A DNA stretch of 8,139 nt, from the IMG/VR virus record IMGVR_UViG_2554235185_000004, positions 1-8,139 of that record; one strand, 5' to 3'. The position numbers were made by a program, and so were the translations under genes. Shown in pieces: positions 1-8,139 of the stretch (position 1 is the first letter of the stretch; every line of letters begins with the position of its first letter). Origin of the DNA: a virus (taxonomy: Duplodnaviria; Heunggongvirae; Uroviricota; Caudoviricetes). The notes beneath the pieces are model-generated. The model searched no databases, was not told where the DNA came from, and saw nothing but the letters and a program-made list of their open reading frames with translations.

Positions 1-722
1 GCGCAATGGTGTTGTGCTGGCACTGCGACAACCAGCTGCGCGACCAGACCTCCGAATCACTCGGGCAACTTGCTCACCAAAACCTGTCTGCATGGATGAT
101 TGACGTCATACGCCATGCAATGAATGGCTCGCAGGAACGGGAATTATCGCTGGCTGAATTATCCTGGTGGGCGGTCCGCAATCAGGTGGCGGACGCGCTA
201 CCGGAAGCGGTATTACGTCGTTCGCTGGGGTTGCGTGCGGAAAAAATCCGCTCAATGTACCGTGAAAGCGACATCGTACCGGGAGAGCAGACCGCCACCA
301 GCATACTGAAACAGCGCACAAAAAATCTTGCGCCGCTGCCTCACGCCCACCAGCAACAGAACCCACCACAGGAAAAGACGGTGGTCAGCATTGCCGTTGA
401 TCCGGAATCTCCGGCTCAGTATCTCCAGCGCCAGAAACCACAACGGGAAGAGATGCCTGTATACACGCGCTGGGTAAAAACGCAGAAATGCATGACGTGT
501 GGCAATCAGGCAGATGATCCGCATCACATCATTGGTCATGGACTGGGAGGGATGGGAACAAAGGCTGACGATTTGTTTGTTATTCCGCTGTGTCGTAAAT
601 GCCATAACGAACTACACGCCGGGGTAAAAGATTTTGAAGAAAAACACGGTAGTCAGTTGTTGTTGCTGATTCGTTTTTTAATGCACGCGAGAAATTCGGG
701 TGTTCTGAAGTGGAAAGCATAA
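1..722 (+). CDS. NinG/DUF968-like protein with a C-terminal HNH-type Cys/His (zinc-finger nuclease-like) motif; probably 5'-partial
   Basis: Reading frame is open from the window edge (first ATG at 6) to TAA at 720-722. C-terminal region has CxxC ... HH ... CxxCH ... H (CMTCGNQADDPHHIIGHG...CRKCHNELH), as in NinG/YdfU-type nin-region proteins. Sits immediately upstream of rusA, as in lambdoid nin regions. Confidence 0.6.
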   Translation, partial: AMVLCWHCDNQLRDQTSESLGQLAHQNLSAWMIDVIRHAMNGSQERELSLAELSWWAVRNQVADALPEAVLRRSLGLRAEKIRSMYRESDIVPGEQTATSILKQRTKNLAPLPHAHQQQNPPQEKTVVSIAVDPESPAQYLQRQKPQREEMPVYTRWVKTQKCMTCGNQADDPHHIIGHGLGGMGTKADDLFVIPLCRKCHNELHAGVKDFEEKHGSQLLLLIRFLMHARNSGVLKWKA

Positions 723-1091
723 ATGACCGAACGCATAGAATTTGTTTTGCCTTACTCGCCGACGGTGAACACTTACTGGCGACGCCGTGGCAGCACATAT
801 TTTGTATCAAAAGCCGGGGAGCGTTATCGCCGGGCAGTGGCGCTTATTGTTCGCCAGCAGCGACTGAAATTAAGCCTGTCCGGACGGCTGGCAATAAAAA
901 TTATTGCAGAGCCACCGGATAAGCGTCGTCGTGACCTGGACAATATTCTGAAAGCACCACTGGATGCGCTGACGCACGCGGGGTTGTTAATGGACGATGA
1001 GCAGTTTGATGAAATCAATATTGTACGTGGCCAGCCAGTATCTGGTGGACGGCTGGAGATAAGAATTACAGAGGTGGGTGTGCATGAATAA
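723..1091 (+). CDS. rusA: Crossover junction endodeoxyribonuclease RusA (Holliday junction resolvase)
   Basis: 122-aa ORF. Shares conserved blocks with remembered E. coli RusA (PDKRRRDLDNILKAPLDALTHAGLLMDDEQ and GGRLEIRITE versus [30 protein letters not shown] and GGRLELTITE). ATG directly follows the upstream stop (TAAATG), with GGAAAG upstream. Confidence 0.9.
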   Translation: MTERIEFVLPYSPTVNTYWRRRGSTYFVSKAGERYRRAVALIVRQQRLKLSLSGRLAIKIIAEPPDKRRRDLDNILKAPLDALTHAGLLMDDEQFDEINIVRGQPVSGGRLEIRITEVGVHE

Positions 1092-1773
1092 CCAGTATTT
1101 ACAGTTTGTTCGTGAGCAACTCATGATTGCCACTGCAGATCTCAGTGGGTCGACAAAATGCCAGCTGGAAGCCTGGCAGGAAAATGCCCTGTTCGATACA
1201 GGGCGTTACAGACGCAAAAAAATTCGTTACCGCGATGAGGTAACCGGAAAAATGATCACGCGGGATAATCCCCCGATCCAGGGTAAACAATCACTGGCGA
1301 AAGGCTCATCAATTGCGCTGGTCAGTCCTGTTGAGTTTGCAACATCATCGTGGCGGCGTGCTGTTCTGGAACTGGAAGAACATCAGAAGGCGTGGTTGTT
1401 GTGGTGTTATGGCGGAAACATTTGCTGGGAGCATCAGATCGCGATAACGCAGTGGGGGTGGAGTGAATTTAAAACTCAGTCCGGCTCCAGAAAAATTGCA
1501 GTGAAAACGCTGGAGCGTGTGAAGAAGTTGATCTGGCTGGCGGCACAGGATGTCAGAGGATGGGTTACCGGGTGTGAGGTCTACCAGAGACAGGAGCTTG
1601 CCAGACTGTGTGGAGTTAAGCCTGATAACTGGAGCCATAATTATGCGAACTACTGGCGTGAGATGTGCGATATTTTTAAGCGCCTCGATAGAGAATCCTT
1701 GATTTGCTCCGTGAAAATAAGAGCGCAACAAAAAGCGACCTTTTCACGACGAGATATTGCAAAAGTCAATTAA
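1084..1773 (+). CDS. Putative late-gene antitermination protein Q (assigned mainly by position)
   Basis: 229-aa ORF from ATG 1084 (GAGGTG Shine-Dalgarno at 1071-1076; an alternative GTG lies at 1078), overlapping the rusA stop. Lies between rusA and a promoter-plus-terminator pair that precedes the lysis genes. I could not match the sequence to a specific Q family by eye. Confidence 0.5.
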   Translation: MNNQYLQFVREQLMIATADLSGSTKCQLEAWQENALFDTGRYRRKKIRYRDEVTGKMITRDNPPIQGKQSLAKGSSIALVSPVEFATSSWRRAVLELEEHQKAWLLWCYGGNICWEHQIAITQWGWSEFKTQSGSRKIAVKTLERVKKLIWLAAQDVRGWVTGCEVYQRQELARLCGVKPDNWSHNYANYWREMCDIFKRLDRESLICSVKIRAQQKATFSRRDIAKVN

Positions 1774-1800
1774 ATCGCGTATGTTTCGTATAAATCTGAT
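1757..1800 (+). promoter_or_regulatory. Candidate late promoter (PR'-like) with tandem -10-like hexamers
   Basis: TTGCAA (1757-1762), 17-bp spacer, TATGTT (1780-1785), then a second -10-like TATAAA (1789-1794). Located directly after the putative Q stop and upstream of a strong terminator, as for lambda PR'/qut/tR'. Confidence 0.3.
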
Positions 1801-1834
1801 ATTTTGCCGATTTTGTACGTGATGGCAAAGTAAG

Positions 1835-1862
1835 AAAAAACCACCGCCAGGTGGTTTTTTTT
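1835..1862 (+). terminator. Intrinsic terminator (tR'-like) downstream of putative Q
   Basis: A6 then CCACC (1841-1845), loop GCCA, GGTGG (1850-1854), then T8 (1855-1862). A/T flanks make it potentially bidirectional. Confidence 0.7.
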
Positions 1863-2183
1863 ATGTCCGAAAATCGCGTCAGTACAGTAAACGCGCTGGT
1901 GGTTGCGAATACGGGTCTTTCAGCTTGCCGGCTTTTTCGACAAGAGTTATTGGTATGTCACGTTAACCGGAAAAGGGAAAAAGACATGCTAAAACAGCAG
2001 GATATGACAGAAGCCGCCAGAGTGGTGTTTAATGAATTAAGCGTTACCGACCCGGCGACAGTCAGGGAGATTGCACAGAATACTTACCTTTCACGCGAAC
2101 GCTGCCAGTTAATACTGACCCAGCTTGTTATGGCGGGTCTGGCAGACTATCAGTTTGGTTGTTACAGACACCTTCAGTCCTGA
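1863..2183 (+). CDS. Hypothetical small protein (moron candidate); alternative start ATG 1986 gives 65 aa
   Basis: ORF from ATG 1863 (106 aa), or from ATG 1986 with a purine-rich AAGGG Shine-Dalgarno. Its TGA stop is embedded in a hairpin followed by a T-run (2171-2197). No homolog recognised. Confidence 0.4.
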   Translation: MSENRVSTVNALVVANTGLSACRLFRQELLVCHVNRKREKDMLKQQDMTEAARVVFNELSVTDPATVREIAQNTYLSRERCQLILTQLVMAGLADYQFGCYRHLQS

Positions 2184-2197
2184 AGGCTTTTTTATTT
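2171..2197 (+). terminator. Intrinsic terminator at the end of the small gene
   Basis: CCTTCA (2171-2176), loop GTCC, TGAAGG (2181-2186), followed by CTTTTTTATTT. Confidence 0.55.
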
Positions 2198-2497
2198 GTG
2201 GTAAATGGGCGGCTGGTGGGTGTGGTGGTTGTTGCTTTCCCGTTGCTGAAAAAGAAAACGCCAGACTGTTAGCCGGGTATCAGTTAGCGGGAGAAATTTT
2301 TAAATACTTCACAATTCAGGCGGTTGACTGTTGTCTGGTTTGCGGGGAGTTTGTTAAAAGAAACTGGCATGGTGAATCCCCCTGTGCGGAGGGGCAATCA
2401 GCGAGTAGGTATATGGGATAATCGCGGATTCAGGTGCTGGTACTGAATTCACCGGGAGGCACCCGGCACCATGCAATGGCACATAGCGCCACTCTCC

Positions 2498-2526
2498 AGC
2501 CCCTCTCCGGAGGGGCTGTTTATATT
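2498..2526 (+). terminator. GC-rich perfect hairpin with downstream T-rich tract (terminator-like, + orientation)
   Basis: AGCCCCTC (2498-2505), loop TCCG, GAGGGGCT (2510-2517), followed by GTTTATATTGATTTTG. A smaller hairpin CCGGG/CCCGG lies at 2452-2466. Confidence 0.5.
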
Positions 2527-2552
2527 GATTTTGTCAGATGTGAGTAAACTCC

Positions 2553-2888
2553 TTATGGACTTTGTTGTTTTAGCCCATAAGGACATATTTGCAGAGTGCA
2601 ACGGTTATTAAAGCATTCATTCAATACGTTATCTGTATTTGTAGGGCATTCCTGGCTGTTTTTGATTAAATTCCAGAATGTTTTATTGAATGGTACTACG
2701 TTGTAAATGGTTACAGGTAGCACTTTGTTATTGAGCATGATACCTGTGTGAGTCAGTGTAAATATACTTTCAGGAGGTAAGAAAGCATCCGATTGATACC
2801 AGATTATTAATTTTATTTTACTCCATATGACTGAAAAAGATATTCCGCATGATGGCTGGATAACTGTATCAATCACAATCCACTTCAT
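2553..2888 (-). CDS. Hypothetical protein encoded in an AT-rich island
   Basis: 111-aa minus-strand ORF with a good Shine-Dalgarno (AAGGAAA about 4 nt upstream of ATG at 2888-2886). Lies inside a visibly AT-rich block (about 2530-3130) that contrasts with flanking phage DNA. No homolog recognised. Confidence 0.45.
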
Positions 2889-3148
2889 TTAGTTTCCTTG
2901 TTTATGCCTTGCTGGTGATGTTCTGAAAAGTATAAATGATATTTTTGATTGTAAACCATAGAGCAGAATTATTTTTCTGATGTTGTTTATTGTTTATTTA
3001 AATGCAGGGTGGTTTATATCTCGTCTTGTAGTTTATCCATGCATATCTGCTTGATGATGAGGTTTTTATTTAAGGTATGGTTTTGTGTTTTTTCTGTATT
3101 ACATGTCAGGTATTTTAAAGAATCATTTTTCAGATGGTGGAAAGAACC

Positions 3149-3337
3149 ATGGCATTTAAACACTATGATGTTGTCAGGGCGGCGTCGCCGTCAGATCTTG
3201 CGGAAAAGCTGACACATAAACTGAAAGAGGGCTGGCAGCCGTTTGGTAGTCCGGTGGCCATAACCCCTTATACCCTGATGCAGGCGATTGCAGCAGAAGG
3301 TGATGTGGTGGTCAGTGGTGCAACTGAGCCGGAGTGA
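3149..3337 (+). pseudogene. DUF1737-like small ORF, possibly the N-terminal remnant of a larger (nanS-p esterase-like) prophage gene
   Basis: 62-aa ORF from ATG 3149 (GGTGGAAAG upstream), MAFKHYDVVRAASPSDLAEKLTHKLKEGWQPFGSPVAITPYTLMQAIAAEGD. From memory this resembles the DUF1737 N-terminal domain of prophage 9-O-acetylesterase genes located before S in Stx-type phages. Downstream DNA (3337-3492) is open in other frames but not this one, consistent with a frameshifted or truncated remnant. Confidence 0.4.
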
Positions 3338-3580
3338 TACTACGTCATCGTACTGGCCCGGCATTCCAGGCCATAAAAGACGGTCTGGCAGTGGGACTAA
3401 ATGCACTGACGCTGACGGATATTACCAAAAATGCAACGTATGGCGTTGAGATAGAAAGTCTGGTGCTGGAGATAAATGCACCGGCATCATCATAAAAAGT
3501 GAGCCAGTCAAATGGAAGGTATCGTTAAACTCACCGGTAGTGTCAGTGGGTCGTCTGAGACGCCTGCATGAGTTATCAGA

Positions 3581-3612
3581 GCCATCAGTACTTAACTGGT
3601 GGCTTTTTTATT
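3581..3612 (+). terminator. Intrinsic terminator immediately upstream of the holin gene
   Basis: GCCATCAG (3581-3588), loop TACTTAA, CTGGTGGC (3596-3603; one G-U wobble), followed by TTTTTTATTG. Confidence 0.55.
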
Positions 3613-3644
3613 GTTGTCAGCTTCCGGATAACGGGAGACGGGGT

Positions 3645-3860
3645 ATGTACCAGATGGAAAAAATCACAACAGGTGTGTCATACACCACGTCAGCGGTGGG
3701 AACGGGCTACTGGTTCCTGCAGTTGCTGGACAGGGTTTCCCCGTCTCAGTGGGCGGCAATAGGCGTGCTGGGGAGTCTGCTGTTTGGGCTGCTGACATAT
3801 CTGACTAACCTGTATTTCAAAATCAAAGAGGACCGGCGTAAGGCGGCGCGGGGAGAGTAA
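3645..3860 (+). CDS. S: Class II holin, phage 21 S21-type pinholin (EssD-like), with dual-start motif
   Basis: 71 aa, [71 protein letters not shown]. Near-identical by memory to S21/EssD pinholins (two transmembrane domains, charged C-terminus). GGGAGA Shine-Dalgarno at 3633-3638. Met1 and Met4 give the dual-start arrangement. Confidence 0.9.
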
Positions 3861-3864
3861 AGTG

Positions 3865-4755
3865 ATGAATAAAAAATATGAACTGGTTGTTAAGGGGATA
3901 AATAATTACGGGGATAAGGTTACTGTTACTGTGAAGTCGGAAGGTGACGGGCAAGCGTCGCTGTTGTTGCCAGATGTGGCGATTAGTCTTGACCGTACTG
4001 AAGGTGCCACGCTGGAGTTTTACGAAGCTGAGGCGAAAAAGCAGGCGAAGCAGTTTTTCATGGATGTTGCTGCCGGGTTATGTGAATGGAACGAACCGTT
4101 GCCGGAAAAGCGCCCCGTAATTTTAGAGGCGCAGGATGTGTTGATAACCTACAAAGGAAAGCTACCGGGAAGAATTACTTGTTCTCTGAAGATGCCGCCG
4201 TCAACACTGCGGTCAGAAAAAGATGATGTTGAATCACGTATTGAAAAACTGGAGAGCTACGTCGTTGAGCTGAATAAGAAATGGTCGATATTGGTGCCTT
4301 CTGGCGATGAAAAGCAGTTTGCTGCGTTTGACGATTATTGTCGGAAAGTGATGAGCAGAAATCTCGCAGAGTGTTTCAGTATTCATAATGATAATTTCAG
4401 TGACCCGGAATGGGAGTGTAACCGGCCATCCTTTGTTGTATCCGGTGATGCTGGGAAAATAACCATCTCAGAAAATGGGAAAGTAACACCTCCATCGCAC
4501 CAGCACAGTGAGGAGCTCATTGAATTTGCCATTGATTACCTGAAGAACAATAAAAAGCAGGGGCTGATGAAGCGCGTTGGCCGTTGCATGGGATATCTTC
4601 AGGTAGCCGCTGAGATTGAAGCGCTGGCCAGTGGTGCTGATAAGGATGCAATTGTGCGGGAGGCTCTTCTTCGTGATTTTAATACTCCACCCTTTAAAAA
4701 AGTGCCGGCTTACTGGCTTCATCCGGGGCTGACTTATCTTAAAGTGCGTATTTAG
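3865..4755 (+). CDS. Hypothetical 296-aa soluble protein inserted between holin and endolysin (unknown function)
   Basis: Long ORF from ATG 3865 (GTG at 3862 also in frame), with GGGGAGAG Shine-Dalgarno lying in the 3' end of the holin gene and the start 5 nt after the holin stop (translational coupling). No signal peptide or transmembrane segment seen, and no motif I recognise. Confidence 0.75.
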   Translation: MNKKYELVVKGINNYGDKVTVTVKSEGDGQASLLLPDVAISLDRTEGATLEFYEAEAKKQAKQFFMDVAAGLCEWNEPLPEKRPVILEAQDVLITYKGKLPGRITCSLKMPPSTLRSEKDDVESRIEKLESYVVELNKKWSILVPSGDEKQFAAFDDYCRKVMSRNLAECFSIHNDNFSDPEWECNRPSFVVSGDAGKITISENGKVTPPSHQHSEELIEFAIDYLKNNKKQGLMKRVGRCMGYLQVAAEIEALASGADKDAIVREALLRDFNTPPFKKVPAYWLHPGLTYLKVRI

Positions 4756-4791
4756 TGGGCCAGGGACAGCGGCTGAATATTTAATATATCC

Positions 4792-5325
4792 ATGAACACC
4801 AAAATCAAATACGGCCTGTCGGCTGCCGTTCTGGCGCTGATTGCCGCTGGTGCGCCTGCGCCTGACATTCTCGACCAGTTTCTGGATGAAAAGGAAGGCA
4901 ACCACACCACGGCATACCGTGATGGTGCAGGTATCTGGACCATCTGCCGTGGTGCCATCATGGTGGATGGCAAACCTGTCGTTCCGGGCATGAAGTTGTC
5001 GAAGGAAAAATGCGACCAGGTTAACGCCATTGAGCGTGATAAAGCGCTGGCGTGGGTGGAGAAAAACATCAGAGTGCCGCTGACCGAACCCCAGAAAGCG
5101 GGGATCGCGTCATTCTGTCCGTACAACATTGGTCCCGGTAAGTGTTTCCCGTCGACGTTTTACAGACGAATTAATGCTGGTGATCGAAAAGGTGCCTGCG
5201 AAGCGATTCGCTGGTGGATTAAGGACGGTGGCAGAGACTGCCGTATTCGTTCAAACAACTGTTACGGTCAGGTATCCCGTCGTGACCAGGAGAGCGCGCT
5301 GGCGTGCTGGGGTATCGACAGATAA
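4792..5325 (+). CDS. R: SAR endolysin (phage lysozyme, T4/P22-type glycoside hydrolase family 24, R21-like)
   Basis: 177 aa. N-terminal Gly/Ala-rich weakly hydrophobic signal-anchor-release segment (KYGLSAAVLALIAAGAPAP). Catalytic E...D...T spacing (EGNHTTAYRDGAGIWTICRG) typical of P22/21-type lysozymes. A SAR endolysin is the expected partner of a pinholin. Confidence 0.9.
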   Translation: MNTKIKYGLSAAVLALIAAGAPAPDILDQFLDEKEGNHTTAYRDGAGIWTICRGAIMVDGKPVVPGMKLSKEKCDQVNAIERDKALAWVEKNIRVPLTEPQKAGIASFCPYNIGPGKCFPSTFYRRINAGDRKGACEAIRWWIKDGGRDCRIRSNNCYGQVSRRDQESALACWGIDR

Positions 5326-5481
5326 GCAGAATATTTTGCTGAAAAATGAGGAATGGCCACGCGGGCGGATAACACGAAATCCTGCGAACTGGCGAAACGT
5401 AAGTGAATAAAAGTAAAAACCCCGTTTGTTGGCACCAAGCGAGGTTTTGTGTTTCTGACCTTGAGTAAGGCAAGGGAGAAC

Positions 5482-5664
5482 ATGGCGAAGTGTAAACGAA
5501 TTCTGTTGAGGTTGACTATGAAAAATGGCCTTGAACTGAAAGCGCCTGTAACTGATGACATCAGCAGAGCACTGGCTTTTGCCATTAAGTGGGTGGCGGT
5601 CGGTGTTGCTGTGTCCCCGATGCTGTATGGGCTGGCAAAACTGGTCATTGCGTTGAAATCGTGA
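5482..5664 (+). CDS. Hypothetical small protein (60 aa) with hydrophobic C-terminal segment
   Basis: ATG 5482 preceded by AGGGAG (5473-5478). Sequence [60 protein letters not shown] has a basic N-terminus and a hydrophobic C-terminal stretch. Located between the endolysin and Rz. Confidence 0.4.
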
Positions 5665-5678
5665 AGGGAGGATTAAGC

Positions 5679-5810
5679 ATGTCAGACAAACTCATAACGC
5701 TGGCGAAGATCCTCTGTGTAATTGTCGGCATTTCATTTTCACTAATGCTGGTTGCTCTTTTTCTTTCCATGGCCTGGATGATGTTGTCTTCGTCGGGGTT
5801 GCTGGGGTGA
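5679..5810 (+). CDS. Hypothetical small single-pass membrane protein (43 aa)
   Basis: ATG 5679 preceded by a strong GGGAGG Shine-Dalgarno (5665-5670). [43 protein letters not shown] is almost entirely one transmembrane helix. Its TGA (5808-5810) overlaps a GTG at 5807 that begins the Rz frame (GTGA coupling). Confidence 0.45.
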
Positions 5811-6280
5811 ACATAAACCGAATGCTTTCCGCGTTTATCGTTATTCTGCTGGTGGCCTGTGGTGCGCTGTGGATGGCAACAGACCATTACCGTGATAACG
5901 CGATTACCTACAAAGCGCAGCGCGATAACAAAGCCAGTGAACTGAAGCTGGCGAACGCAACCATTACTGATATGCAGGTGCGCCAGCGCGATGTTGCTGC
6001 GCTCGATGCAAAATACTCGAGGGAATTAGCCGATGCGAGAGCTGAAAATGAAACTCTTCGCGCTGACGTTGCCGCTGGTCGTAAGCGCCTGCGGATCAAC
6101 GCCACCTGTCCAGGCTCCGTGCGTGAAGCCCCCACCACCTCCGGCGTGGATAATGCAACCGGCCCCCAACTGGCAGACACCGTTACACGGGATTATTTCA
6201 CCCTCAGAGAGCGGCTGATGACGATGCACAAGCAACTGGAAGGGGCACAGGACTATATCCGCACTCAGTGCCTGAAATAA
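5807..6280 (+). CDS. Rz: Rz, inner-membrane spanin subunit (i-spanin)
   Basis: Strong similarity by memory to RzpD (shared [44 protein letters not shown]). N-terminal transmembrane segment followed by a coiled-coil-like periplasmic domain. Start could be GTG 5807 or ATG 5822. Confidence 0.88.
6033..6218 (+). CDS. Rz1: Rz1, outer-membrane lipoprotein spanin subunit (o-spanin), embedded in the +1 frame of Rz
   Basis: 61-aa ORF wholly inside Rz in another frame. Lipobox VVSAC, then a proline-rich mature region with [14 protein letters not shown], as in RzoD/Rz1. Alternative start at ATG 6048. Confidence 0.85.
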
Positions 6281-6590
6281 GTTTTGTTGATGCGCCGTAT
6301 CGTCGCTATATTCCCTCATTAACAGAGACCGCAGCCCGACAGGGAGACTCCTCTGCGCGAGTGTGCGGGGATAATTAAAAACGATGCACACCGGGTTTTT
6401 ACCGCGTTAATGATTCGCGGGTTTATCCCGGTGCGATGGTGGAAGAAACAGGAAGCTGTATTACAGAAAGTGCTACTACTGTATCCCGATGCGATGTATG
6501 TAATGTGAGTCAGATAATGGCACAGGATGTGGTGATGTGGCAGTCTGGAACACAGGATATATTGTCAGAATAAGACCCGTAGGAATAAAA

Positions 6591-6917
6591 ATGAAAAGAC
6601 GCCTTTTACTACTTTTTCTGTTATCTGTCCTGGCAGTGGGATGCTCGCAGCAAAAAGCTGATGAGCCCCGGCAATTAGTGACGGTGTATCCACGATATCC
6701 GGAATATGCTGCAGCAAATTATATCAAGGGGCTGGTTGAGGTTAAGTTCGATATTGGTGCTGATGGGACTGTGACACGGATCGTTTTTCTCCGCTCAGAG
6801 CCTCATAATTTGTTTCGTGATGAAGTGGTGAAGGCCATGGCGAAATGGCGATTTGAAAAGAATCGCCCCTGTCAGGGAGTGAAGAGACAATTTATCTTTA
6901 CGCCGTCACGTCCTTGA
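6591..6917 (+). CDS. Lipoprotein with TonB C-terminal-like domain (moron)
   Basis: ATG 6591 with AGGAA Shine-Dalgarno. Signal peptide plus lipobox (MKRRLLLLFLLSVLAVGC, Ser at +2). Mature region PRYPEYAAANYIKGLVEVKFDIGADGTVTRIVFLRSEPHNLFRDEVVKAMAKWRFE aligns by eye with the E. coli TonB C-terminal domain [56 protein letters not shown]. Preceded by about 310 bp of non-coding DNA. Confidence 0.75.
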   Translation: MKRRLLLLFLLSVLAVGCSQQKADEPRQLVTVYPRYPEYAAANYIKGLVEVKFDIGADGTVTRIVFLRSEPHNLFRDEVVKAMAKWRFEKNRPCQGVKRQFIFTPSRP

Positions 6918-7008
6918 TGCTTCCAGGTAGAGAGGGGCTGGACGCAGGAGAAAAATGAAAGAGCCAGCGGTTATATTTTTGTCATGGCTGACGAGGAATG
7001 ATGGAAGA

Positions 7009-7058
7009 AGGCGTTGTATGCCACACAACGCCTCACTGTTCATTTCTTCTTTTTCTCT
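7009..7058. terminator. Hairpin between convergent genes (possible bidirectional terminator)
   Basis: AGGCGTTGT (7009-7017), loop ATGCCAC, ACAACGCCT (7025-7033), a perfect 9-bp stem. T-rich tract TTCATTTCTTCTTTTTCTC follows on the + strand after a short spacer; the U-tract on the minus side is weaker. The T-rich tract overlaps the last codons and stop (7040-7042) of the minus-strand ORF. Confidence 0.4.
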
Positions 7059-7219
7059 GGTGGAACCCGATGAATAAGAGTTGCACTGGTTTCCGATGAG
7101 ATGGCGATATACTCGGGCAAAGTATGCTGGCAGTTTTCCAACTGGTCAAAAATACCTGCTCTCGTCTGTTGCAATGCCTGCAGCATGCGGCGGCAATGCG
7201 CCTTGCTTTTACTAACCAT
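7040..7219 (-). CDS. Hypothetical small protein (59 aa; the longer 117-aa frame to 7393 is less likely)
   Basis: Internal ATG at 7219 is preceded on the minus strand by a strong GAGGAAGGAAAG Shine-Dalgarno. The extension up to 7393 is proline-rich and overlaps the upstream gene in another frame. Product MVSKSKAHCRRMLQALQQTRAGIFDQLENCQHTLPEYIAISSETSATLIHRVPPEKKKK is not recognised. Confidence 0.35.
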   Translation of the reverse strand: MVSKSKAHCRRMLQALQQTRAGIFDQLENCQHTLPEYIAISSETSATLIHRVPPEKKKK

Positions 7220-7280
7220 CTTTCCTTCCTCTATCAGTCGCTGCGTGAACTCATCATGTAATACCAGGTAAATGCGGATG

Positions 7281-7532
7281 TTATCGGTTTTGGCTACGCA
7301 GCATAGTACAAAACGGACAGGTGCATCCCGGGACGGGGGAGGCGTCACATGTCCCTGTGATGGTTGTTCCGGGTAATGCACTGTGTGGGGCATAAAAATG
7401 TCCGATAATTTTACTTTCTACCGCAGTTAGTTGATTCGTTGGTCCTGGTAGCACATTGGGCGAGGATTTAAATGCCAGGCAACTGAAGGATGATGTTGCA
7501 AGGGAGATAGCGAGAATATTTCTGATTTTCAT
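7281..7532 (-). CDS. Small secreted, cysteine-rich protein or lipoprotein (signal peptide MKIRNILAISLATSSFSC), Bor-position moron
   Basis: Minus-strand ATG at 7532 with a GAGG-containing Shine-Dalgarno. Classic N-terminal signal peptide with a possible lipobox (SSFSC) or signal peptidase I site. Mature part has 5 Cys (TGTCDASPVPGCTCPFC). Same location and orientation as lambda bor, but not Bor-like by sequence. Confidence 0.5.
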   Translation of the reverse strand: MKIRNILAISLATSSFSCLAFKSSPNVLPGPTNQLTAVESKIIGHFYAPHSALPGTTITGTCDASPVPGCTCPFCTMLRSQNR

Positions 7533-7668
7533 TTGATGATGCCTCTGTGTGAAATGACGGTAAACGACGCACTTGTGCCGGCACATAATAGCAAGCACCA
7601 TAATAGATCAGATTCGATTCTTGCTGTAAGTGATAATTATTCTCGTTTTCGGGTCCTTTCCGTCGATC

Positions 7669-7704
7669 CAACAGGTTACGGGGCGGCGACCTCGCGGGTT
7701 TTCG
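7669..7704. other. cos: cosN, cohesive-end site (12-nt cohesive end GGGCGGCGACCT at 7681-7692)
   Basis: CGATCCAACAGGTTACG|GGGCGGCGACCTCGCGGGTTTTCGCTATTTATGAAAATTTTCCGG matches the joined right and left ends of the lambda genome almost base for base (from memory). Lies about 180 bp upstream of nu1. Confidence 0.85.
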
Positions 7705-7728
7705 CTATTTATGAAAATTTTCCGGGGA

Positions 7729-7845
7729 AAATCATGTCGGTACTTCTCGAACATAACTATTTGTTTTTTCTAATATCGAATCCGTAAAAGGTCCGACATG
7801 AAAACGCCTAAAAAAGTCATTTTCGGGCACTTTCATGTCGGCCCC
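7729..7845. promoter_or_regulatory. cosB-like region with three copies of a TCATGTCGG element (candidate Nu1 R sites)
   Basis: CATGTCGG at 7733-7740 (+) and 7834-7841 (+), and its inverse CCGACATG at 7793-7800, with AT-rich spacers. Position between cosN and nu1 matches lambda cosB, but the sequence differs from lambda here. Confidence 0.45.
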
Positions 7846-7867
7846 TGTATTTATTGTGAGACTGTTT

Positions 7868-8139
7868 CATGAAGGTTAATAAAAAGAAACTTGCCGAAAT
7901 TTTCAACGTGGATCCGCGAACGATTGAACGCTGGCAGTCTCAGGGACTCCCTTGCGTCTCCGGAGGTGGTAAGGGCGTTGAATCTGTATTTGATACCGCC
8001 ATGGCAATTCAGTGGTATGCGCAGAGGGAAGCTGATATCGAAAATGAAAAACTCCGTAAAGAGGTTGAGGATTACAGGGCTGCCAGTGAGGCAGATCTCC
8101 AGCCTGGGACTATTGAGTACGAACGCCATCGACTTACGC
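7868..8139 (+). CDS. nu1: Terminase small subunit Nu1 (gp1), 5' portion; continues beyond the window
   Basis: ATG 7868, open to the window end. [90 protein letters not shown] closely parallels lambda Nu1 (MEVNKKQLADIF...GGGKG...[33 protein letters not shown]), with a diverged helix-turn-helix segment. Confidence 0.9.

Follow-up and report, generated by a model that had tools for sequence, protein, structure and literature searches.

A full-length YdfR/DUF1327-family protein encoded between the holin and lysozyme genes of an Escherichia coli lambdoid prophage

We analyzed a gene for a 296-aa protein that lies between the holin and lysozyme genes in an 8,139-nt stretch of viral DNA (IMG/VR record IMGVR_UViG_2554235185_000004, positions 1 to 8,139; hereafter “the window”), which is the late region of an Escherichia coli lambdoid prophage of the Qin/933W type. 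The protein almost certainly belongs to the YdfR/DUF1327 family (PHROG 1085), as one of its full-length members. The family is an optional, mosaic accessory gene of the lambdoid prophages of Escherichia, Shigella, and Salmonella, and is located in the Q-dependent late operon by the lysis cassette. Residues 1–100 match Pfam DUF1327 (PF07041) with 137.9 bits, where the gathering cut-off is 25 (E = 1.3e-40), and the entire protein aligns end to end with the profile of PHROG 1085, a family of unknown function (residues 1–296 on 1–296 of 296, E = 3.1e-190). A preliminary description of this DNA, made by a model from the letters alone, had reported no recognizable motif, and these matches correct it. 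Identical DNA (100% over 891 nt) carries the NCBI/RefSeq name “YdfR family protein,” and a BLASTP comparison with YdfR of E. coli K-12 gives 47% identity over 78 columns (residues 1–74, E = 6e-21). DUF1327 is the sole Pfam match, all PHROG matches are labeled “unknown function,” and none of the NCBIfam models matches the protein. The homology that was found is therefore to a family that has a name and no established function, rather than to a characterized protein of mundane function.

The gene and its immediate surroundings are as follows.

3645–3860, plus strand: S21-type class II holin (pinholin), 71 aa, with an M1/M4 dual start (PF04971, P21 holin S, E = 7e-33)
3852–3855, plus strand: Shine-Dalgarno-like GGAG in the 3′ end of the holin gene, at a 9-nt distance from the ATG at 3865
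3865–4755 (stop codon included), plus strand: the 296-aa YdfR-family gene (PF07041; PHROG 1085)
4756–4791, plus strand: AU-rich spacer of 36 nt before the lysozyme ATG at 4792, with no Shine-Dalgarno sequence within 5–13 nt
4792–5325, plus strand: R, phage lysozyme, 177 aa, with an N-terminus resembling a signal-arrest-release (SAR) segment (PF00959, E = 2.4e-24)

The open reading frame (ORF) is intact from the ATG at 3865 to the TAG at 4753–4755. An in-frame GTG at 3862 would yield 297 aa, and the homologs begin at the ATG. The holin stop codon (TAA, 3858–3860) is separated from this ATG by 4 nt. The protein looks soluble, with a maximum Kyte-Doolittle 19-residue mean of 0.75 and thus no transmembrane segment, and the N-terminus of R is hydrophobic and rich in G and A. 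Several parts of the preliminary description are borne out by these data, namely a soluble protein between a pinholin and an endolysin, a start directly after the holin, and a distance of 36 bp to an endolysin ATG that lacks a Shine-Dalgarno sequence. The late operon that contains the gene is defined by the antiterminator Q (see below). Scans of the slot between holin and lysozyme found no plus-strand promoter-like site for the gene and no convincing terminator, the single terminator-like hairpin being weak and inside the ORF. Since the gene lies in a Q-dependent late operon without its own promoter or a convincing terminator, co-expression with the lysis genes is the natural expectation, as had been proposed.

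Three further candidates were tried and rejected. The absence of a plus-strand promoter-like site and the weakness of the hairpin rule out a promoter and terminator belonging to the gene itself (the signature of a moron). RNA structure occluding the start of R was ruled out, as the fold around that start is no better than that of shuffled sequence (z = 0.21), and so was an internal start yielding a 213-aa isoform, as there is neither a Met nor a Shine-Dalgarno sequence at the equivalent position.

That the 296-aa ORF is a real gene rather than a product of chance is shown by a ratio of nonsynonymous to synonymous substitution rates (dN/dS) of 0.18–0.38 for its C-terminal domain against four diverged homologs, and by the presence of hundreds of homologs in the databases. 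In RefSeq, the Prokaryotic Genome Annotation Pipeline (PGAP) presents the identical DNA in NZ_CP023820.1 (1274970–1275860; L004, 9001–9891) as a pseudogene, “YdfR family protein, incomplete, missing C-terminus,” that covers the first 112 codons only. This call is an annotation artifact, because the ORF is intact in DNA that is 100% identical over 891 nt. Of five genomes listed with identical DNA, four have no annotation in the region encoding the C-terminal domain, and the domain is often unannotated in RefSeq because PGAP calls the gene a truncated 112-codon pseudogene.

The gene order is that of E. coli K-12 itself. In the Qin cryptic prophage, the order essQ-ydfR-rrrQ-rzpQ matches that of the window, the same 4-nt gap follows the holin stop, and the window holin and lysozyme are 80% and 89% identical to EssQ and RrrQ, respectively. 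YdfR (b1555, P76160) belongs to the same Pfam family and shares the 47% identity over residues 1–74 noted above, but has only 103 aa and is without the conserved linker, helical hairpin, and C-terminal domain of the 296-aa protein. The ydfR stop codon overlaps the rrrQ start (ATGA), whereas 36 nt separate the window gene from R. This arrangement does not support reading the gene as an unusual or undescribed insertion. The premise of the preliminary description that the endolysin gene directly follows the holin holds for DLP12, where essD and rrrD are adjacent, but overlooked Qin.

Among phage records, 436 carry this holin type, 106 carry any homolog of the 296-aa protein, and 330 of the 436 holin carriers are without a homolog. 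A question raised at the outset was whether S and R are adjacent in relatives, and they are in the 933W-like phage PA28, where only 4 nt separate S from R and the lysozyme begins at the junction GGGGAGAGTAA-NNNN-ATG exactly as the 296-aa gene does in the window. K-12 ydfR is preceded by the near-identical junction GAGGAGAGTAA-NNNN-ATG. The large number of holin records without a homolog and the arrangement in PA28 indicate that the gene is dispensable for the cassette. Where the slot is occupied, it can contain (i) an N-domain-only protein of 103–112 aa (K-12; Shiga toxin (Stx) phages of the Stx1a and Stx2c types), (ii) the full architecture of 268–330 aa (the window, Stx2_95, phage 86), or (iii) the coiled coil and C-terminal domain without DUF1327, 209–213 aa (Stx2_12E129), and a reverse-strand ORF sometimes adjoins the gene. 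The Stx-phage proteins gp05 of phage 86 (268 aa) and BCI50300 of Stx2_95 (329 aa; 77.5% identical to the 296-aa protein over its full length) occupy the same slot after the holin, have the same N- and C-terminal domains with a replaced or expanded middle segment, and are annotated as hypothetical. The Stx2-converting phage 86 has an additional reverse-strand ORF before R. A “type IIA topoisomerase” note on phage 86 gp05 was rejected, as it is without Pfam support. The Qin-type lysozyme (MNTKI...) is without a Shine-Dalgarno sequence both in the window (4756–4800) and at the K-12 locus (L003, 5050–5070, minus strand), and the 933W-type lysozyme (MSRKF...; L011, 3200–3225) uses a GGAG at the end of the holin gene. 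Translation of the endolysin may depend on the slot occupant.

A megablast search of complete E. coli genomes found part of the DNA of the gene in 2703 of 5426 and at least 80% of it in 496 of 5426. By segment, the holin was found at 8950 places in E. coli genomes, the N-terminal domain (of the sequence type seen here) at 3749, and the C-terminal domain at 952 places in 777 genomes. Taxonomically, the family is narrow: 1.84 billion proteins contain 112 representatives at 50% identity, all representatives whose source names an organism are enterobacterial, and a scan of GTDB genomes with the C-domain alignment returned three loci only. Such a confinement to enterobacteria fits a host-specific target.

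We divide the protein into four segments.

3865–4092, plus strand: N-terminal DUF1327 domain, aa 1–76, three beta strands and a long helix; acidic, with an isoelectric point of 4.8
4093–4224, plus strand: basic linker, aa 77–120, in which E. coli homologs conserve PEKRPxILEAQDVLITYKGKLPGRITxSLKMPPSTLRSEKDD
4225–4404, plus strand: helical hairpin/coiled-coil segment, aa 121–180, with helices at 122–146 and 149–176 in the AlphaFold2 model
4405–4752, plus strand: conserved C-terminal alpha/beta domain, aa 181–296 (about 110 aa), without a Pfam family and also found without DUF1327

The usable AlphaFold2 model was obtained from an alignment of 78 diverse sequences (mean predicted local distance difference test score (pLDDT) 72.5), whereas a shallow alignment of E. 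coli sequences alone gave a model too poor to use (pLDDT 46.5). In this model, the N-terminal domain (residues 1–73) has pLDDT values of 77–98 over residues 1–70, and it corresponds to the segment of K-12 YdfR reported to bind RNase E. One face of this domain bears the invariant sequence DRxEGAxLEFYEA. The linker is modeled as disordered (residues 77–119, pLDDT below 50) and may fold upon partner binding. The 112-aa short forms stop just past it, and the counterpart in the Salmonella relatives, as located by eye, is GKLNGEYKIRVVNKNGKLSV. Mosaicism within the family is greatest in the helical hairpin, where variants differ by insertions, deletions, and replacements. The C-terminal domain (185–296) is a three-strand meander with four helices, with block-mean pLDDT mostly 74–95 and 50–68 at the C-terminal end. 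Its motifs are H-x4-I-x3-I, KRxGRCMGxLQVAAEIE, and DNPPFKxxPxxWxxPGxxYLKxR, and the invariant residues in an alignment of 14 diverse sequences (alignment A3) are G55, R56, L61, Q62, A64, P92, K94, W100, P103, and Y107, within the conserved blocks GR, LQ-AAE, PP-K, W, PG, and Y. The identification of this conserved C-terminal domain, which is not registered in Pfam, is a contribution of the present analysis. Profile searches of the PDB with full-length, C-domain, and N-domain alignments gave only chance or weak coiled-coil matches, and the model has no structural match in the PDB or BFVD. Variant C-termini and Salmonella relatives were scanned for informative domain fusions and none were found. 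The PHROG matches of the eight relatives scanned are all of “unknown function,” except for one marginal tail-fiber match.

The C-terminal domain is under purifying selection, and for the N-terminal domain compared with K-12 ydfR the proportions of nonsynonymous and synonymous differences are 0.34 (pN) and 0.76 (pS), respectively. These values bear on a reading in which the protein as such does not matter and the gene is either a translated spacer that brings ribosomes to the endolysin start or a decaying remnant. Consistent with such a role, R has no Shine-Dalgarno sequence in the window, the K-12 ydfR stop codon overlaps the rrrQ start, N-only forms are about four times as common as C-domain forms in E. 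coli genomes (3749 versus 952 places), and PGAP calls the identical DNA a pseudogene. However, the protein is conserved at the dN/dS values given above, its invariant residues are common to Salmonella relatives that are 32–42% identical in the C-terminal domain, and these relatives are not upstream of an R without a Shine-Dalgarno sequence. Moreover, a gap of 36 nt does not favor termination-reinitiation, and the pseudogene call made by PGAP for this intact ORF is an artifact. We thus regard an unimportant protein as very improbable.

The distant members of the family are “hypothetical proteins” of 220–340 aa from Salmonella enterica lambdoid prophages (P0241, P0272, and others). They have the same three-part architecture, with the invariant motif residues of the C-terminal domain retained, and their N-terminal domain is a remote DUF1327 homolog (hhalign probability 90%, E = 2e-6) that falls below the Pfam threshold. 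The full-length form found in the window is the architecture common to the Salmonella relatives, and K-12 YdfR is a reduced version of it. The relatives are likewise encoded in the late operon beside an S21-type holin, lysozyme, and Rz, but in the order Q, opposite-strand HicAB, homolog, holin, lysozyme, Rz. The gene is thus upstream of the holin, and S and R overlap. One relative adjoins a different holin family, with two other genes intervening. A reverse-strand HicA/HicB toxin-antitoxin pair is consistently found before the homolog in these prophages (L013–L016, about 4650–5470, minus strand). What stays constant, therefore, is that the gene belongs to the late operon and neighbors the lysis cassette. 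The position between S and R is itself not conserved, and the location of the Salmonella homologs upstream of the holin weakens the case for a functional role of that position.

The preliminary description had suggested lysis timing or inhibition, anti-defense, superinfection exclusion, and abortive infection as candidate roles, none of which gained support. The only match in PADLOC-DB v2 was to PbeC and covered 64 residues in the coiled-coil segment (E = 0.018, 11.3 bits), which is not a meaningful defense match. A search for features of lysis proteins (holin, antiholin, endolysin, spanin, releasin) found no transmembrane or SAR segment and no lysis-category Pfam or PHROG match to the protein.

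As a lysis-timing regulator, the protein could act as a cytoplasmic factor that binds the charged C-terminal tail of the pinholin or affects release of the SAR endolysin, tuning the time of depolarization. T4 RIII, a cytoplasmic antiholin cofactor that acts on holin T in a lysis-inhibition system with a periplasmic sensor, is comparable in that both proteins are soluble, cytoplasmic, and holin-associated; however, they share no homology, and nothing like the periplasmic-sensor system is seen here. The gene always adjoins the lysis cassette in both E. coli and Salmonella, it follows the holin stop by 4 nt with its Shine-Dalgarno sequence within the holin gene, and a genetic screen cited by Göpel et al. 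(2026; PMC13232886) linked ydfR to the integrity of the envelope. This envelope phenotype could, in our reading, be a polar effect of the ydfR knockout on the downstream lysozyme gene rrrQ. In addition, 330 of the 436 holin records and 933W-like phages (S-4 nt-R) do without the gene, the holin has its own dual-start antiholin motif, the gene flips to the other side of the holin in Salmonella (and in one relative is two genes away from a holin of a different family), and the protein has neither a transmembrane segment nor similarity to lysis-category families. We consider a role in lysis timing unlikely.

Alternatively, the gene could be late-expressed cargo (a moron) for host takeover, anti-defense, or exclusion apart from RNase E, with the C-terminal domain as the effector and DUF1327 as an interchangeable targeting or regulatory module. 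The guanine-cytosine content of the gene is 46%, below the 54–55% of S, R, and Rz, as expected for acquired cargo. The extreme mosaicism (N-only, N+C, and C-only forms in one slot), the reverse-strand ORFs inserted beside the gene in some phages, the location in the Q-to-terminase cargo region that is home to stx and other accessory genes, the neighboring HicAB in Salmonella, and the absence of a known fold also fit such cargo. Against this, there is no PADLOC match of weight, and without a plus-strand promoter of its own the gene would have no expression in the lysogen, where exclusion would matter. Nor does any positive evidence point to a particular target, and we see cargo of this kind as a somewhat unlikely reading.

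The reading that we tentatively prefer, and hold only as a possible one, derives from work on K-12 YdfR. In a two-hybrid screen baited with RNase G, Göpel et al. (RNA Biol, 2026; PMC13232886) recovered YdfR residues 1–72 on three occasions, and this fragment gave two-hybrid signals with RNase E constructs (including Rne1-597) and with RNase G. Strep-YdfR co-purified chromosomally encoded Rne1-598-FLAG, in an eluate rich in DNase-resistant nucleic acid (RNA-rich). By homology, the 296-aa protein might be a late-expressed cytoplasmic accessory protein that modulates RNA decay. Synthesis would take place in the cytoplasm toward the end of the lytic cycle, together with that of the holin. Host RNase E would be contacted at its catalytic N-terminal half by the DUF1327 domain, as is reported for the homologous residues 1–72 of YdfR, the helical hairpin may self-associate, and the C-terminal domain would contribute a second activity, in binding or as an effector. 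The protein would thereby modulate how RNA is decayed or processed by RNase E during use of the long late transcript, and it would not be part of the core lysis machinery. In support of this proposal we count the membership in DUF1327/PHROG 1085, the K-12 synteny, the identity to YdfR, and the published YdfR data; the two confidently modeled domains with linker and hairpin, the architecture kept in Salmonella, and the constant late-operon position; and the optionality, purifying selection, low guanine-cytosine content, and narrow enterobacterial range.

Several observations weigh against an action through RNase E. The C-domain-only variants (209–213 aa) that fill the same slot are the chief internal objection, since the function of the C-terminal domain then does not need the putative RNase E-docking module. 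The link to RNase E comes from one paper and from a 103-aa relative to which the 296-aa protein is only 47% identical, so that binding is reported for YdfR and is extended to our protein by homology. In that paper, full-length YdfR gave a two-hybrid signal only with Rne1-597, and ydfR overexpression altered few transcripts and did not stop growth. Furthermore, the contact between YdfR and RNase E could be RNA-bridged, as the co-purification was done without nuclease treatment and the eluate was RNA-rich. Finally, the 296-aa protein has no detected fold or profile similarity to known RNase E regulators or to anything else. In the literature searched, ydfR is treated substantively only in PMC13232886, and “DUF1327” occurs otherwise in one paper, as annotation only. 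The searched passages of a survey of Stx-phage lysis cassettes (PMC8136144) do not mention the gene.

Proteins that modulate RNase E include the phage proteins T7 gp0.7 kinase, T4 Srd, and phiKZ Dip and the host regulators RraA, RraB, and RapZ, to which the relationship is a functional analogy only; the 296-aa protein has no detected sequence or fold similarity to any of these six. The analogy with the phage proteins would be that of a small, RNase E-contacting phage protein that alters RNA decay. T7, T4, and phiKZ are virulent phages, and most of their modulators act on the C-terminal scaffold of RNase E or by phosphorylation, unlike YdfR, which was mapped to the catalytic N-terminal half. 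A more specific version of the proposal is a two-module device against the host RNA degradosome, in which DUF1327 would dock on RNase E and the C-terminal domain would block or redirect it, controlling how stable the long late transcript is, with its lysis genes and, for Stx phages, its toxin genes. We think this version improbable as it stands; if true, no modulator of RNase E would have been described before from a temperate lambdoid phage.

The remaining features of the window, in an order taken from Pfam and PHROG scans and the ORF list, are given below.

6–722: DUF968, first in the window
723–1091: RusA
1078–1773, plus strand: antiterminator Q (PF06323, E = 2e-82)
2553–2888, minus strand: IraM-like ORF, 111 aa (110 residues scanned; 158 bits for NCBIfam “anti-adapter protein IraM,” whose cut-off is 121; E = 6e-47)
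3134–3337, plus strand: DUF1737 ORF
5449–5664, plus strand: 71-aa ORF with a hydrophobic C-terminal half (PHROG 1115, unknown function)
5807–6280, plus strand: Rz i-spanin with embedded Rz1 (6033–6218), end of the lysis cassette (PF03245, E = 2e-47)
6594–6917, plus strand: lipoprotein-like ORF of small size; TonB C-terminal domain (PF03544, E = 7e-13)

The interval from Q to the holin contains a few small ORFs and the minus-strand IraM-like gene, a homolog of a host regulator (a stabilizer of RpoS) carried as prophage cargo inside the late region. The DUF1737 ORF is marked incomplete by PGAP in the identical DNA and overlaps the start of a small ORF at 3334–3495, which suggests that a pair of genes 5′ of the holin has decayed or fused. 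In the same interval, Rfam identifies the gammaproteobacterial small RNA STnc100 (RF02076) at 2338–2527 on the plus strand, full length and with 132 bits against a gathering score of 47; it terminates in a strong hairpin and T-run at 2497–2518. Terminator-like hairpins with T-runs also occur on the plus strand at 3578–3606, just 5′ of the holin start, and at 1843–1855, just 3′ of Q, and are presumably sites read through by Q-modified RNA polymerase. A second optional slot lies between R and Rz, and is occupied by the 71-aa ORF in the window and by the anti-repressor Ant in 933W-like phages. The TonB_C ORF is in the place of Bor in lambda, 933W, and DLP12, and the locus of one Salmonella-type relative (L006) has a weak TonB_C gene in the equivalent place on the opposite strand. 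In E. coli strain 7/2, the source of CP023820, the 100% identical DNA of the 296-aa gene is part of an otherwise complete-looking prophage, in which terminase, portal, and head genes then follow.

Overall, the gene between holin and lysozyme is a real but ordinary observation: it is already catalogued and belongs to a very common family, in a position seen in E. coli K-12 itself. It should not be treated as a new insertion. Half of the complete E. coli genomes contain part of its DNA, and 9% contain at least 80% of it. It is the 296-aa form, rather than the 103-aa K-12 YdfR, that displays the architecture common to the Salmonella relatives. The gene is located in the lysis-gene transcript and, in Stx phages, adjoins the toxin genes. 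If the RNase E lead is true, temperate phages would adjust host RNA decay in their late phase, and this could affect both lysis and toxin output.

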